Origin: Chlamydiota bacterium
GTDB taxonomy: Bacteria; Auribacterota; JACPWU01
Assembly: GCA_016196885.1 (NCBI GenBank)
Contig: JACPWU010000035.1
Location: forward strand, 1,328 to 33,327
Reading direction: 5' to 3'
Length of the DNA stretch: 32,000 nt
Part shown: piece after piece, positions 6,477-13,456 of the stretch
Numbering within the stretch: the first letter of the stretch is position 1
How the letters are laid out: each line of letters opens with the position of its first letter
Made by a program: the position numbers and the translations under genes
The notes under the pieces: model-generated
What the model saw: the letters and a program-made list of their open reading frames with translations, nothing else
The model's database searches: none
Told to the model about the DNA's origin: nothing

Positions 6477-7961
6477 CTACTCCAAAATAATATCTGTCGG
6501 ATCCTGTGGATTCACATAGCCTCCTCGCGTGGGATCATAATCTTGAGGCGTTACCCACACCGCTTGTCCCGTCTTCTCGGAATCCCGATAGCCCCCGCCC
6601 TGCATGTATTCTCCCCATTTTTCACCCACCAGATCATTGGACTGGGTTTTTGCCTCCCAGCTTTCCATCACGCTGGAGGTGTCGGCGGGATGATTGGCCG
6701 GTAAAACCATGCCTTTCACCCCGCCCCCCAAAAGCTCTGGATGCAGGACCTGAAAACTTTTTTCAATCGCTTCTAGAAGGGATGAGACCGATTCCCATCG
6801 CTCGAGGGGGGCCTGTCGAATAGACATCACGCCTGAGAAGCTCACCATTTGCCTTAAAATTCCAGAGGTCATCGCCGCCCTCAATCGGCGGCCCTGCCAG
6901 TCATATTCCATGATGCGCCCGCCCATTCTCCAAGTTTGCCCGATGGCGTCTGTCATGTCCGCATAAGATTTTTGATCGAGAATGACGCTATTTTGAAGTT
7001 TGTCACCCAGATTGCGAAGGGCAAAATCCATGAATTGAAAGGGATCGGGATTGCCCGGCAAATAAATGGAAAGCCCTATCGAAACCGCTGTCTCATCTTG
7101 TGGGTCTTTCACATCAATACCATTTAAGGTCTCACTCACCTGCCAACCGTCTGGATAATAAACCTGAAAGGCATTCCCCTGATAAAGCTTCAGAGGCTCG
7201 CCTTGAAAAGTTTCAAAACTCTCTGCAATCACTTGAAGCATTTCTTCCAAACCTTCCCATTCTTTTTGACGCGCCCAATAGGCTCGATAAAGACCGCGCC
7301 TCCCCTCCAAAGAAACTTTTGCCTTTCCTTGAATGGGAATCCCCGCTAAGACGCCCGAAAAATCAGCTGTCGCAAGCGTCTCTCTTTCATCCACCGCTCC
7401 CAGACTTAAACTGTTTCCACTTTTTTGATAAATGGCCTGATCTATTTGGAAGCAACTTCTCAAAAATTCTGTCAGGGTTAAACCCTTTTTTAAAAAAACG
7501 GGATAAACCACCACCCCCGTCAAGGCCTGAGGTTCCCGCTTCACCAAAATCTTTCCCTGCATGGCATGGAGATGCCACATTTCCGGAATCCGAATCGAAA
7601 ATCCCAGAAAGGCATCACGATAAACTGTCATGGGAAGCGACACACTTGGTTTCCTGACGGCCGTCAGTGGAATGGGAGTCACTCCCGTCACTCCTGAACC
7701 TTTCCCGATGGGGATTTGAGAACCATCGGGGAGTTCAAGAAATTGAGCAGAACCCCAAGAGGGCTCTGTCACTTTTGTTGTCACAGAAGAAGGACGAGAC
7801 ACCCCAGGTGTTTCTTGATCTATTTTTTGCCTGGCCTCATTTCTCTTCCATGAAAAAATGAAAGCAAGGCTGACAAAAGTAAAAAATCCCACCGTCACCA
7901 AAATTTTTTGGCGCAGGGACCAAGCACCCACCTGAGACAGGAATGAAAAGCACTTTTTCAC
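6477..7961 (-). CDS. Membrane-anchored protein with two PsbP/DUF1795-like modules (paralog B), last gene of the sensor-kinase operon
   Basis: 494-aa ORF with the N-terminal TM helix ILVTVGFFTFVSLAFIFSW. It is a paralog of 1093-2340 (see that entry). Its ATG overlaps the stop of the upstream REC-HK gene (ATGA at 7958-7961), implying translational coupling. It has an extra Gly/Asp/Pro-rich C-terminal extension. Confidence 0.75.
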   Translation of the reverse strand: MKKCFSFLSQVGAWSLRQKILVTVGFFTFVSLAFIFSWKRNEARQKIDQETPGVSRPSSVTTKVTEPSWGSAQFLELPDGSQIPIGKGSGVTGVTPIPLTAVRKPSVSLPMTVYRDAFLGFSIRIPEMWHLHAMQGKILVKREPQALTGVVVYPVFLKKGLTLTEFLRSCFQIDQAIYQKSGNSLSLGAVDERETLATADFSGVLAGIPIQGKAKVSLEGRRGLYRAYWARQKEWEGLEEMLQVIAESFETFQGEPLKLYQGNAFQVYYPDGWQVSETLNGIDVKDPQDETAVSIGLSIYLPGNPDPFQFMDFALRNLGDKLQNSVILDQKSYADMTDAIGQTWRMGGRIMEYDWQGRRLRAAMTSGILRQMVSFSGVMSIRQAPLERWESVSSLLEAIEKSFQVLHPELLGGGVKGMVLPANHPADTSSVMESWEAKTQSNDLVGEKWGEYMQGGGYRDSEKTGQAVWVTPQDYDPTRGGYVNPQDPTDIILE

Positions 7962-9097
7962 AACGCCCTCTCCTTTATCAACGGAATCCAGAAGTGAACT
8001 TGTGTACCCTCTCCTAGAGTGCTGTGAAGCTCAATCTCTCCACCATGCCGGGCAATCATGCCTTTGGCAAAGGGGAGTCCCAGGCCAGCAAGTTTCTCGT
8101 TATCCTTTTCCACATTGATGATCGGAAAGAATAAATCCCTTCGGACCTCTTCAGAAATCCCATGTCCTTCATCTTTAATCGTGAAGCTTATTGCGGGCAT
8201 GTTATTTTTATCCATGGGTTTGGCCTGAACCTCTACTGTTCTCCCTTTGTCACTTGCCTCTATTGCATTCAGGACCAGCCTTCGTAAGGTTTCCTGTAGG
8301 GCCGTAGGACTTGCCAGCACTTTCGTCTTTCCTCCCTCTATTTCCTTCTTGAGAATAATTCCTTTTTCATGAACTGCCTTTTGAAGCTCTTCATCCTCAA
8401 AGTCCACCAATTCACTGAGTGCAATCTCTCTAAAGTCTTTGAGGCTATCCCAATAGATGGTCCTTAAGTTGTGGGTGATTTCTCGAATCCGTCTGACACA
8501 TTGAAGAGCCGTATTGCCAAACTCGATCTCGGATTCGTCTTTATTAAAGCGCCGAGCTGCCAGTTGTACAAATGTATATACACTCTGAATTGCATTGTTG
8601 ATGTGGTGAGCAACCCAGGTGGTATAATTTTCCATGGCATGGGAAGTTTTTTCCTGAATCAACCGTGTGACTTCTTCCAATTGGGTGTTTTTTGCCTTTT
8701 CTTCAATATATTTTTGCAGGCTTGCTCCTAAGACTGCTTCTATTTCTTCTCTTTGATAGGGCTTATGAATGTATTTGAAAATTTCTGCTTGATTAATGCT
8801 GGAGCCCAGGACTTCTATGTCTGAGTATCCAGTGAATAAGACTCGGATCACCTGAGGAAAAAACTGTTTGATTTGAGCGAGAAGTTCTATTCCCGTCATT
8901 GCGGACATGCGTTGGTCTGCGATAACAACTGCAATTTCGCTTCCCCGAGGGGTTCGTAAGATTTCCAGAGCTTCTTTGCCTGTCTGTGAAACCAGAATAT
9001 TGAAGGAATCTCCAAACTGGAGTTTAAAAGTTTTTAGAACTTTTTGCTCATCATCAACAACAAGAATTGAATAATTCTTCTGAGAAACTGCTGTCAT
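7958..9097 (-). CDS. Response-regulator receiver / histidine kinase fusion (REC-DHp-HATPase_c)
   Basis: The REC domain shows ILVVDDEQ...AVVIADQRMSAMTG...VLFTGYSD. The H-box is VAHHINNAIQSV. The ATPase G-boxes are IKDEGHGIS and GLGLPFAKGMIARHGGEIELHSTLGEGTQVHFWIPL. A GAGGAG RBS is present (revcomp of 9104-9112). Confidence 0.85.
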   Translation of the reverse strand: MTAVSQKNYSILVVDDEQKVLKTFKLQFGDSFNILVSQTGKEALEILRTPRGSEIAVVIADQRMSAMTGIELLAQIKQFFPQVIRVLFTGYSDIEVLGSSINQAEIFKYIHKPYQREEIEAVLGASLQKYIEEKAKNTQLEEVTRLIQEKTSHAMENYTTWVAHHINNAIQSVYTFVQLAARRFNKDESEIEFGNTALQCVRRIREITHNLRTIYWDSLKDFREIALSELVDFEDEELQKAVHEKGIILKKEIEGGKTKVLASPTALQETLRRLVLNAIEASDKGRTVEVQAKPMDKNNMPAISFTIKDEGHGISEEVRRDLFFPIINVEKDNEKLAGLGLPFAKGMIARHGGEIELHSTLGEGTQVHFWIPLIKERAL

Positions 9098-12078: not shown

Positions 12079-13456
12079 AATTTTTTAGAAGGCTCTCATC
12101 AATGTATCCGACTGAGTTTCTGAAATAGGCAAGTCTAAAGTCTAGACTTCTGGCCGCCTGATAGATTTCTTCTGCTTGATGCGCTTGAACCTTTCCGATG
12201 CTGCAGGTGTTGGACCGACCTATGGCGGTTAAGACCATGGTCTCAGCCAGGCACCCTAAAGCTTCGTTTCGATTCAGATCAAAGTCAAAGTGACAGTCCA
12301 CACCCGGCGTTTCTACAATCGCGGATTCGATCACAATGATATCGTTTCTTTTCTTTGGAACTTCGTCAGAGACATTCTTGGGCTGGGCACAGTCTATGAC
12401 GATTGCCCCTGGCTTAAAATGTTCAGCGTGCACAATAGCCCCAGGAGCGTTGGTGACGACGATTACAATGTCTGAGCCCGCTATTCCAGAAAGGTTTCCT
12501 GAAGTTTCAATTTCGCAAGGAGCATCTTGGATAGAATCGATCAGCTCTTTCAATGCCTTTTGATTGATGTCTATTAGTTTGAGTTTTTTGACTTTTCTCG
12601 CCAGGACTTGGACACAGCCTGTTCCTACTGAGCCCGCAGCCCCAATGACAGCAAGGGTCGAGTTTTCCAGTTTTAATCCAATCAAGGCAGCTGCCTTGAC
12701 CACATTTTGTACGGCTACGGCGGCCGATAAGGGATTGCCCGTCGTTACCCCAATCTGAACTTTATCAACCACATCTTTTCCATCATGGGTGACAATAGAG
12801 GTAAAGGCCCCCAGCCCTACAGTTCTGACCCCTATTCTTTGCGCAAGTTTTACCGTTTCTAAGACACGGTGACTGGCCATTTTTCTGTCTTTGAGCATTT
12901 GAATCGTCCACAGAGGTGAGCCGATGAACCAGCCGTTTACGGCTTTTCCCGTTTTGTCTTTTAAGCCTGTGATCTTCGACGCGATAAACGGTTTTTGATG
13001 ATAAAACCATTTTTGTACCCATGTCTCTTTCATCCATTTGGCAAAGGGAAACATTCGATATACGTCCCGATGATCTCTCGGATGCCCAATAAAAGCAAAG
13101 GCGCCTTTACCAACCAAAAACCGTCCGATTTTTTCTGGAAGAAGAGGGATGAGACTGTCGCGAAGTGCAGTTAGAATGCTTAGCATGCCTTGATGAAGTC
13201 TGGATCTTTCAGGTTGGAAAGAGGGGCCTCTTGATCTGCGCGCTTCACGACGACGATCCGCTTTTTTCCTTCTGTCATGTTGAGTAGATGAGCTCCATAC
13301 ACGGCGATTTTTTTCTCTTCGATCTTGTTTTGATGCTCTGCGATAGATCGGGAATTCGTCCGGTATAGTTACCGACTGGATTGGTGCTTGATCAAGAAGA
13401 GAGCAAGCGCTTGTTGATGTTTTAGGTAAGTTATTTATGACAAAAGAAAGTTCCAC
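12041..13456 (-). CDS. Acyl-ACP reductase (AAR)-like NAD(P)-binding Rossmann protein with Arg-rich N-terminal extension
   Basis: The core FIGHPRD...LGAFTSIVT...TTGNPLSAAVAVQ...LAVIGAAGSVGTGC...IVVTN...VIDCAQPKN...GCLAETMVLTAIG is collinear, from memory, with cyanobacterial acyl-ACP reductase (LIGH...LGGFTSI...TTGN...VVGATGDIG...DGGYPKN...CFAEAMLLEFEG). The annotated start is a GTG at 13456. An alternative ATG at 13186 (MLSILTAL...) would remove the basic extension. Confidence 0.6.
   Translation of the reverse strand: MELSFVINNLPKTSTSACSLLDQAPIQSVTIPDEFPIYRRASKQDRREKNRRVWSSSTQHDRRKKADRRREARRSRGPSFQPERSRLHQGMLSILTALRDSLIPLLPEKIGRFLVGKGAFAFIGHPRDHRDVYRMFPFAKWMKETWVQKWFYHQKPFIASKITGLKDKTGKAVNGWFIGSPLWTIQMLKDRKMASHRVLETVKLAQRIGVRTVGLGAFTSIVTHDGKDVVDKVQIGVTTGNPLSAAVAVQNVVKAAALIGLKLENSTLAVIGAAGSVGTGCVQVLARKVKKLKLIDINQKALKELIDSIQDAPCEIETSGNLSGIAGSDIVIVVTNAPGAIVHAEHFKPGAIVIDCAQPKNVSDEVPKKRNDIIVIESAIVETPGVDCHFDFDLNRNEALGCLAETMVLTAIGRSNTCSIGKVQAHQAEEIYQAARSLDFRLAYFRNSVGYIDESLLKNCAEIIAEKERKN

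Follow-up and report, generated by a model that had tools for sequence, protein, structure and literature searches.

The window analysed in this study is a 32,000-nt stretch of contig JACPWU010000035.1 (assembly GCA_016196885.1, Chlamydiota bacterium; Auribacterota in GTDB). It also matched contig JACOUD010000019.1 of assembly GCA_016178005.1, a metagenome-assembled genome with the label "Chlamydiae bacterium". The window carries four closely packed genes on the minus strand, named here genes 1 to 4. Gene 1 is predicted to encode a thioester reductase resembling acyl-acyl carrier protein (ACP) reductase (AAR), gene 2 a hybrid sensor kinase anchored in the membrane, gene 3 a histidine kinase controlled by a receiver domain, and gene 4 a protein with one membrane anchor. 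In this study, we believed that genes 1 and 2 are an instance of a conserved two-part module, in which an AAR-like reductase gene stands upstream of a membrane sensor gene, and that the enzyme produces the signal which the sensor reads. This synthase–sensor mechanism is the reading we prefer, and we hold it tentatively, as possible but somewhat short of probable. The link between enzyme and sensor is itself conserved, and it is tied to the enzyme and not to the kinase family from which the sensor of the window is drawn. The parts are of known kinds, namely an AAR-like reductase, an Lvr-type kinase relay and an H-NOX/V4R fold. The pairing itself is apparently undescribed: full-text literature searches found no published account of this reductase clade paired with a HisKA_7TM or H-NOX-like sensor, of its fusion to PilZ or of its association with FadL.

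Strong family matches were obtained for genes 1 to 3, with gene 4 as the exception. For gene 1, the match in Pfam was the Shikimate_DH-type NAD-binding domain alone (2.9e-8), and the NCBIfam models matched were the PigE N-domain (7e-43) and AAR (6.8e-24). The best matches among solved structures were PigE (4ppm, 1e-19) and AAR (6jzu, 3.5e-16). Cys402 of gene 1 (in EALGCLAETM; codon 12251-12253) aligns with Cys294 of AAR (in CFAEAM of 6jzu), whose equivalent in PigE is Cys296. The TTGN motif (residues 238-241) and the Gly-rich Rossmann loop (GAAGSVG, residues 272-278; GxxGxxG) are also common to gene 1, AAR and the PigE N-domain, which belong to one fold family. In AAR, PigE and glutamyl-tRNA reductase alike, the acyl group is transferred onto this Cys, and its reduction then gives the aldehyde (PMC8341465). 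The equivalent Cys, together with a Thr-Thr-Gly motif, also occurs in a related terminal domain of nonribosomal peptide and polyketide synthases (bioRxiv 10.1101/2024.10.28.620694). When clade members were aligned, neither Cys402 nor TTGN nor the Gly-rich loop varied in any of the 12 sequences (12/12), which indicates that the catalysis of gene 1 is under selection. The AAR-like nature proposed for gene 1 in the preliminary description is therefore upheld by the PigE and AAR matches and the intact catalytic Cys. At the family level, it is a well-founded inference from the sequence that gene 1 encodes a thioester reductase with aldehyde release. Gene 1 differs from AAR and PigE in its setting. 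It has no fused or adjacent aminotransferase and no aldehyde-deformylating oxygenase partner; no oxygenase family of this kind was present among the 24 window open reading frames (ORFs) scanned or in the related loci read. It has an Arg-rich linker, preceded by a PilZ domain in relatives, and a sensor gene always follows.

The conservation of the pair was read from the surroundings of related enzymes. A genome scan with the enzyme alignment gave 347 loci, of which 80 were kept, and the contigs of eight close metagenomic relatives were added. ORFs were called in all loci and searched with the window domains and with the proteins of the Nitrospira loci. Compared with the window core, the enzymes formed two groups, a close clade with 35-63% identity and a distant clade with 29-39%. 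The close clade contained 33 further loci (L001-L030 and L096-L098) from Nitrospira, Elusimicrobiota, Omnitrophota, Planctomycetia and unbinned metagenome contigs. The results showed that a HisKA_7TM sensor gene was located downstream on the same strand in every one of them (30/30 for L001-L030, and also L096-L098). It followed the enzyme gene directly except in L030, where two genes lie between, and the two genes were mostly separated by no more than 10 nt or overlapped. The distant clade, from Negativicutes, Armatimonadota and others, had no such sensor of any kind (0 of 54 loci), and its neighbours were the housekeeping genes birA, coaX, dus, greA and lysS.

The output domains behind HisKA_7TM varied. 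In Nitrospira and most other lineages the sensor continued into GAF and a histidine kinase. In the Omnitrophota/Planctomycetia loci L029 (9235-11265) and L030 (3015-5057) the kinase was replaced, and HisKA_7TM and GAF were followed by an HD domain of the HD-GYP type. In L097 (7340-10153) GGDEF stood in the place of the kinase. Judged by these domains, the modules of the three loci are wired to cyclic di-GMP (c-di-GMP) turnover. The input domain of the sensor was conserved whatever the output, a pattern to be expected if the enzyme feeds or contacts the input side of the sensor, and not if it is a mere regulated target. No receiver gene was found near the pair in the Nitrospira loci; the enzyme is thus more than a target of some adjacent two-component system.

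The N-terminal part of the enzyme provided a further connection. Most relatives of gene 1 are approximately 580 aa long, and their extra N-terminal region scored as PilZ in a subset; the three closest relatives have canonical RxxxR and (D/N)xSxxG PilZ motifs, as read by eye. This PilZ-type domain, together with the HD-GYP and GGDEF outputs of the sensors, ties the module to c-di-GMP in relatives. Between the PilZ-type domain and the reductase, the relatives keep an Arg-rich linker (P-D-E-Y/F-P-x-Y-R-R ... DRR ... RR ... RRSRGP). The deposited call of gene 1 is 381 aa with a start at 13186, which is M91 of a 471-aa ORF. The ORF upstream of M91 aligned with the linker of the relatives, and in tblastn the homology reached approximately residue 17, about 75 residues upstream of M91. 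Because the homology continues upstream of M91, the 471-aa ORF is nearer to the true protein than the 381-aa call. The gene 1 protein is thus probably close to 471 aa, a form which lacks PilZ and retains the linker. No PilZ remnant was detected upstream of gene 1 in 13457-14300. P0019 is another form of the reductase without PilZ.

Other genes adjoined the pair in part of the clade. A gene for a FadL/TodX (Toluene_X) outer-membrane channel was present beside it in 17 of 25 genome loci; examples are L004 13871-15304, L009 5613-7022 and L029 6802-8082, with 14 further loci. An aldo-keto reductase gene stood beside the pair in some loci. In L003, a fusion of a PilZ-like and an HMG-CoA-reductase-like part (3440-5107) separates the PilZ-AAR-like gene from that of the 7TM kinase; it is a second thioester reductase of the cluster, possibly under c-di-GMP control. 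Directly upstream of the PilZ-AAR-like gene, two unrelated metagenome loci had a small gene of 80-84 aa with a LexA-type helix-turn-helix (L003 1158-1412 and L098 5713-5955). It may be a local repressor in these two loci, and the window has no equivalent.

The same adjacency could arise if the reductase is an accessory input subunit. It would bind the sensor and relay the metabolic state to it, as the NAD(P)H/NAD(P)+ ratio, the charge of acyl-ACP or, in relatives, c-di-GMP through PilZ, and no diffusible product would be sensed. There are precedents for such an arrangement: stand-alone H-NOX proteins control neighbouring kinases, and RpfF contacts RpfC. In nearly all loci the stop and the next start lie very close together, as is typical for genes whose products interact. 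The enzyme is fused to a PilZ-type domain and a conserved Arg-rich linker, and the pairing persists whatever the output domain of the sensor. A full swap of the sensor fold, from 7TM to H-NOX-like, would also be easier if the contact were made by some other part, for instance the coiled coil or the transmembrane (TM) part. However, the invariant catalytic Cys, TTGN and nucleotide loop point to selection on catalysis, the FadL genes in 17 of 25 loci imply a hydrophobic molecule which crosses the outer membrane, and two unrelated sensor folds would need to dock on one enzyme. The subunit model explains the adjacency as well as the synthase–sensor mechanism does, and is the weaker explanation of the conserved catalytic residues and of the FadL genes. 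We regard it as rather unlikely.

The neighbouring genes also bear on another model, in which the pair is a unit of membrane-lipid homeostasis. Here the sensor would read a physical or chemical property of the membrane, the reductase would be a co-expressed effector of lipid remodelling, for instance as the source of fatty aldehyde or alcohol from which ether or wax lipids are made, and the adjacency would reflect co-regulation. Both types of sensor are embedded in the membrane or tethered to it, and the AAR family makes lipid-derived aldehydes (PMC8341465; bioRxiv 10.1101/2024.10.28.620694). The aldo-keto reductase and the PilZ-HMG-CoA-reductase-like gene beside the pair in some loci would also fit. 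However, most loci have no DNA-binding regulator adjoining the pair, and none was found among the other window ORFs scanned. Other lipid-biosynthesis genes are not co-conserved with the pair. The GGDEF and HD-GYP outputs would in addition require control of the enzyme by way of c-di-GMP and PilZ, a domain that the window copy lacks. Overall, we consider this model unlikely.

In the synthase–sensor reading, the sensor of the window takes the place that HisKA_7TM has elsewhere. Pfam searches and motif reading gave the following domain order for gene 2, in the numbering of the 968-aa form: sensor, TM hairpin, coiled coil, DHp/CA, REC, DHp/CA. This confirmed the anatomy given in the preliminary description, with its N-domain, 2-TM hairpin with a 7-residue loop, HisKA-HATPase, REC and second kinase core. 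Neither the N-domain nor its profile had a match among PDB sequences, and the match of the N-domain to Pfam V4R (PF02830) was below the threshold (17.2 bits; gathering threshold 31). An exhaustive HMMER search found homologues in at least 905 clusters at E<=0.001. The domain was N-terminal in nearly all of the 150 matches listed, and the host proteins were mostly approximately 460-1100 aa long. Among 32 diverse members, 26 had HATPase_c and others had GGDEF or a Ser/Thr kinase; V4R was matched at E<=0.01 in nine of the 32 and PF12625 in 11. Three Cys residues were invariant across these 32 members.

The fold of the N-domain was predicted with AlphaFold. The single-sequence model was unusable (pLDDT 46), and the model built from a 28-sequence alignment had a pLDDT of 94.1 and a pTM of 0.89. 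Searched against the PDB with Foldseek, the latter matched H-NOX structures best (E ~5e-7, TM-score 0.63-0.67 over approximately 195 columns; 2o09 4.9e-7, TM-score 0.63/0.68; 4u99, TM-score 0.67), followed by the phenol-sensing domains of PoxR and MopR (E ~1e-4, TM-score 0.45-0.48; 5fru 1.5e-4, TM-score 0.48; 5kbe 3.1e-4). The Foldseek probability was 1.0 for these folds, and H-NOX fitted better than PoxR/MopR. The pattern C153-x22-E176-x2-C179-x7-C187 has the same spacing as the structural zinc site C149/E172/C175/C183 of XylR. The putative zinc ligands lie on helix 150-161 and on strands 173-178 and 187-192 of the model, matching helix alpha-6 and the beta-hairpin of that site. The site was demonstrated in PoxR, MopR and DmpR. 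None of the columns that are invariant or nearly so in the N-domain family is a His, Tyr, Ser or Arg, and there was thus neither a conserved proximal His nor a conserved YxSxR motif. Because these elements are not conserved, haem-based gas sensing is unlikely, and the reading of the domain as a haem-binding H-NOX sensor of NO or O2 was rejected. With hhalign, only the first 58 columns were aligned to Tt H-NOX, for which an approximate sequence was used.

These results support the N-domain as a predicted haem-less H-NOX/V4R-fold domain with a putative structural zinc site, tethered at the inner face of the membrane. The V4R-like domain for small ligands suggested in the preliminary description is in line with the fold model, the Foldseek matches and the XylR zinc spacing. 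The fold is common to the A domain of XylR, DmpR, MopR and PoxR (XylR_N and V4R) and to bacterial H-NOX. The N-domain differs from them in that it has no sequence match to the solved structures and no haem motifs, and in that it is joined to a TM hairpin and kinases and not to a sigma-54 activator. Positive charges were present on both cytoplasmic flanks of the hairpin, and close homologues have both segments too. The second segment is hydrophobic, yet it remained under the 19-residue hydropathy threshold used.

An H-NOX/V4R-type sensor was found behind the enzyme in only two loci, the window and L031. The latter belongs to a metagenome-assembled genome (MAG) with 32% GC which is labelled Pseudomonadota, and the locus ends at the contig edge. 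In a neighbour-joining tree, the window enzyme nested with P0002, P0003 and L006, which are all paired with 7TM kinases, and L031 was at the base of the clade. This indicates that the pairings of the window and L031 are phylogenetically separate. The nested position of the window enzyme, in a subclade otherwise paired with 7TM kinases, would also suit an adjacency without function. In that case, an Lvr-like kinase pair would have been inserted behind the AAR-like gene after PilZ and the 7TM partner were lost, and the genes would merely be co-transcribed. The nearest N-domain kinases were found without the enzyme, and gene 4 and several flanking genes belong to expanding lineage-specific families, which suggests that the region is plastic. 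On the other side, the order of an AAR-like gene and an H-NOX/V4R-type sensor appears independently in L031, and the spacing of 13 nt and the single promoter-like site fit one operon. Moreover, the slot that was filled is the one occupied by a sensor in 33 of 33 other loci. We regard a non-functional adjacency as quite improbable.

Genes 2 and 3 resemble the virulence relay LvrA/LvrB of Leptospira. The best full-length NCBIfam architecture match of gene 2 was LvrA (residues 264-978 on model positions 130-817), and its second core corresponds to the module at the C-terminus of LvrA termed "hybrid response regulator". Gene 3 matched the LvrB model over 133-373 and the LvrB structure 8vc9 in the PDB (1.7e-8). 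The domain and gene orders are identical in the two systems, and neither operon has a DNA-binding output. LvrA has the architecture PAS-DHp-CA-REC-DHp-CA, and LvrB is REC-DHp-CA (PMC5863495; PMC13269768). LvrA phosphorylates its own Asp and D56 of LvrB, and phospho-LvrB autophosphorylates H161, from which the phosphate goes on to LvrC, a distant partner (PMC5863495; PMC13269768). D56 and H161 of LvrB are comparable to D61 and H164-165 of gene 3. LvrA differs in being cytosolic with a PAS sensor, whereas gene 2 has an H-NOX/V4R-type sensor, a TM hairpin and an enzyme gene upstream. The scores were far below the orthologue cut-offs (gene 2 against LvrA, 278.6 and 1200 bits; gene 3 against LvrB, 60.2 and 500 bits), so genes 2 and 3 form a relay of the same kind and not Lvr itself. 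P0123, the second-closest N-domain kinase (48% identity), likewise has a REC-HisKA-HATPase gene behind it (L095 8249-9421). A sensor kinase paired with a Rec-controlled kinase may thus be the usual arrangement in this kinase subfamily, whether or not the reductase is present.

From these data we propose how the synthase–sensor module of the window would work. By analogy with AAR and PigE, the acyl group of acyl-ACP or acyl-CoA would be transferred to Cys402, and the aldehyde would be released with NAD(P)H. This hydrophobic product, or a close derivative, would partition at the membrane and be bound by the adjacent sensor, which is HisKA_7TM (with GAF) in most lineages and here the haem-less, presumably zinc-stabilised H-NOX/V4R-fold domain on its 2-TM hairpin. 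Occupancy of the ligand site would set the autokinase activity of H333. If the architecture is followed as in the LvrA to LvrB relay, the phosphate would pass to D653, which would gate the second core, and to D61 of gene 3, which would gate its kinase core. The final response regulator would be encoded elsewhere. Such a circuit would report the flux through a pathway of lipid-derived aldehydes, and would serve as metabolic feedback or as a signal of the autocrine or quorum type. In relatives a layer of c-di-GMP would be added through the PilZ domain of the enzyme and the HD-GYP or GGDEF outputs, and this layer would have been lost in the window copy. That the ligand is a lipid-derived aldehyde, or is derived from one, is an inference which fits the hydrophobic-ligand fold, the polytopic 7TM domain, the FadL channels and the chemistry of the family.

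Gene pairs of an enzyme and a sensor for lipid-derived signals are known, namely RpfF/RpfC for the diffusible signal factor and CqsA/CqsS and LqsA/LqsS for alpha-hydroxyketones. In each of them, the gene for an enzyme acting on an acyl thioester stands beside that for a membrane sensor kinase, which may be hybrid, and the pair is conserved across genomes, as in the module described here. The enzymes of RpfF/RpfC and CqsA/CqsS are a crotonase and a pyridoxal phosphate-dependent acyltransferase, in contrast to the thioester reductase of this module. Their sensor domains differ as well, and the outputs here can be c-di-GMP enzymes.

Several observations weigh against the synthase–sensor reading. 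The scores of gene 1 were far under the equivalog cut-offs of both AAR (TIGR04058; 84.8 against 449.7 bits) and PigE (147 against 850 bits), and its substrate may therefore differ from theirs. The window enzyme has no PilZ domain, and no FadL gene was present among the 24 window ORFs scanned. Direct contact of the two proteins, with no diffusible ligand, would lead equally to adjacent genes. In the reverse test, an AAR-like gene was found in none of the seven loci examined for the closest N-domain kinases (P0122, P0123 and five metagenome loci, the latter from a scan with a narrower N-domain alignment). As the domain family comprises 905 clusters and these seven loci are without an AAR-like gene, the H-NOX/V4R-type sensor family is not dedicated to the product of the enzyme. 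The preliminary description had sought co-conservation of an AAR-like gene with this particular N-domain kinase. Co-conservation of the enzyme with a sensor was confirmed (33 of 33 loci), but not with this kinase, as 33 of 34 partners were HisKA_7TM proteins and the reverse test gave 0 of 7. Finally, the second example of the H-NOX/V4R-type pairing, L031, has in-frame stops: a TAA at 8223-8225 between the linker and the core of the AAR-like gene and a TAG at 9861-9863 in the N-domain gene. These stops could mean that the genes are pseudogenes, that the assembly is in error or that codons are recoded. The idea of an alternative genetic code in L031 was rejected, because the stops are TAA and TAG and the frame decays after the second stop near the contig end; reassignment of TGA was excluded.

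The coordinates of the operon features are listed in Table 1. The ORFs and the junctions read from the DNA agreed with the earlier view of four tightly packed minus-strand genes. Genes 1 and 2 are separated by a gap of 13 nt if gene 2 starts at ATG 12027, and overlap by 38 nt if it starts at GTG 12078. The ATG is the most likely start of the kinase, because the NCBI record calls it and the resulting N-terminal length equals that of the homologues. A gap of 23 nt lies between genes 2 and 3, and genes 3 and 4 overlap by 4 nt. The terminal start/stop coupling described earlier was correct in its 4-nt overlap but not in its sequence, which reads GTGA and not ATGA. The site TTCTCA-16-TATAAT, which scored best among the promoter-like sites of this strand, is a candidate operon promoter by consensus match, and the number of sites in the promoter scan of the region was not above the shuffled expectation. 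A weak consensus scan revealed no convincing terminator between the four genes. No Rfam family match or tRNA was found in the window, and the idea of a riboswitch or another RNA element, whether in the leader or at some other place, was rejected on this ground. Among the 20 other window ORFs scanned, there was no other receiver and no DNA-binding regulator, the latter as had been stated before. The circuit can thus not be called self-contained, since its output is absent from the window, which the preliminary description had itself remarked.

Table 1. Positions of the four operon genes and of their domains and sites in the window
Feature	Position	Strand	Details
Gene 1, AAR/PigE-N-domain-like NAD(P)H-dependent thioester reductase (predicted)	12041..13456	-	471-aa ORF; family matches
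Arg/Lys-rich linker of gene 1, residues 30-90	13187..13369	-	PDEFPIYRR...DRR...RR...RRSRGP; R or K = 20/61
Gene 2, hybrid sensor kinase	9121..12027 (ATG start); ORF 9121-12078	-	968 aa from ATG 12027, 985 aa from GTG 12078
N-domain of gene 2, residues 1-199	11431..12027	-	Predicted cytoplasmic H-NOX/V4R fold; ends C179-x3-G183-x3-C187
Two-TM hairpin of gene 2, residues 200-244	11296..11430	-	Segments 200-220 and 228-244; 7-residue outer loop PKSTLNG
First kinase core of gene 2	10354..11061	-	HisKA, H333 in ITHEFRTPL; HATPase_c
Internal receiver of gene 2	9877..10212	-	D653
Second kinase core of gene 2	9124..9825	-	AHHFNN H-box, H747/H748; HATPase_c
Gene 3, Rec-controlled histidine kinase	7958..9097	-	REC D61, AHHINN H164/H165, HATPase_c; LvrB-type architecture
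Gene 4, 494-aa protein, one N-terminal TM anchor	6477..7961	-	Lineage-specific; paralogue of 1093-2457(-)
Promoter-like site TTCTCA-16-TATAAT (candidate)	13526..13553	-	10/12 consensus matches; ~70 nt upstream of GTG 13456

Gene 4 was regarded in the preliminary description as a PsbP-like protein and as a member of the circuit, and neither view was supported. The gene had one N-terminal TM segment and no match to NCBIfam. Its single Pfam match was PsbP (PF01789), which covered only 25 residues (260-284) and was below the threshold (20.2 against 23.5 bits). Its homologue was found in none of the related loci, so that it is not co-conserved with the pair. Gene 4 is probably co-translated with gene 3, judging from the GTGA start/stop overlap, which is its only tie to the signalling genes. 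Its product shares 37.5% identity over 333 aa with that of 1093-2457(-). Four ORFs around the operon, 2345-3529(+), 3567-5087(+), 5092-6183(+) and 14240-15616(+), form a second paralogous family with 20-42% mutual identity, whose members are exported or membrane-anchored and have weak PsbP/DcrB matches. Both families are lineage-specific.

Further genes in the window were also recorded. Two paralogous genes of the DUF6036/DUF2204 nucleotidyltransferase-like type, 13717-14208(+) and 29252-29770(-), share 26% identity, and one of them is divergent from the promoter region of the operon. The segment 18414-21616(-) contains cdaA (cyclic di-AMP, c-di-AMP, synthase), a YbbR-domain gene and glmM (phosphoglucosamine mutase), which is the conserved arrangement of the c-di-AMP operon. 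It is surrounded by the housekeeping genes folP, ftsH, recR, dnaX, pdxJ, acpS and an NAD(P)HX repair gene.

If the synthase–sensor mechanism is true, thioester reduction to an aldehyde would join the short list of routes to bacterial lipid signals. Two orphan sensor domains, HisKA_7TM and the haem-less H-NOX/V4R-like domain with its at least 905 clusters, would also gain a hypothesis on their ligands that can be tested. The version in the window joins the module to an Lvr-type multi-kinase relay, and is thus a natural system with a candidate input for the study of Rec-controlled kinases. A wider proposal, which we consider doubtful, is that of a lipid-signalling family in which the reductase, often gated by PilZ and c-di-GMP, makes a signal of the fatty-aldehyde type, a dedicated membrane sensor (HisKA_7TM, or here the H-NOX/V4R-like domain) reads it and a FadL-type channel carries it across the outer membrane. 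Such a family, if real, would be widespread in Nitrospira, would occur in Elusimicrobiota, Omnitrophota, Planctomycetia and the MAG of the window, and its signal would be an autoinducer or quorum signal of a new chemical class; HisKA_7TM would then have its first class of ligand. Nearly all of the sampled Nitrospira, key nitrifiers of soils, waters and wastewater plants, have the module. A cell-cell or metabolic signal that controls the kinases and c-di-GMP enzymes of Nitrospira could bear on biofilm formation and nitrification performance.

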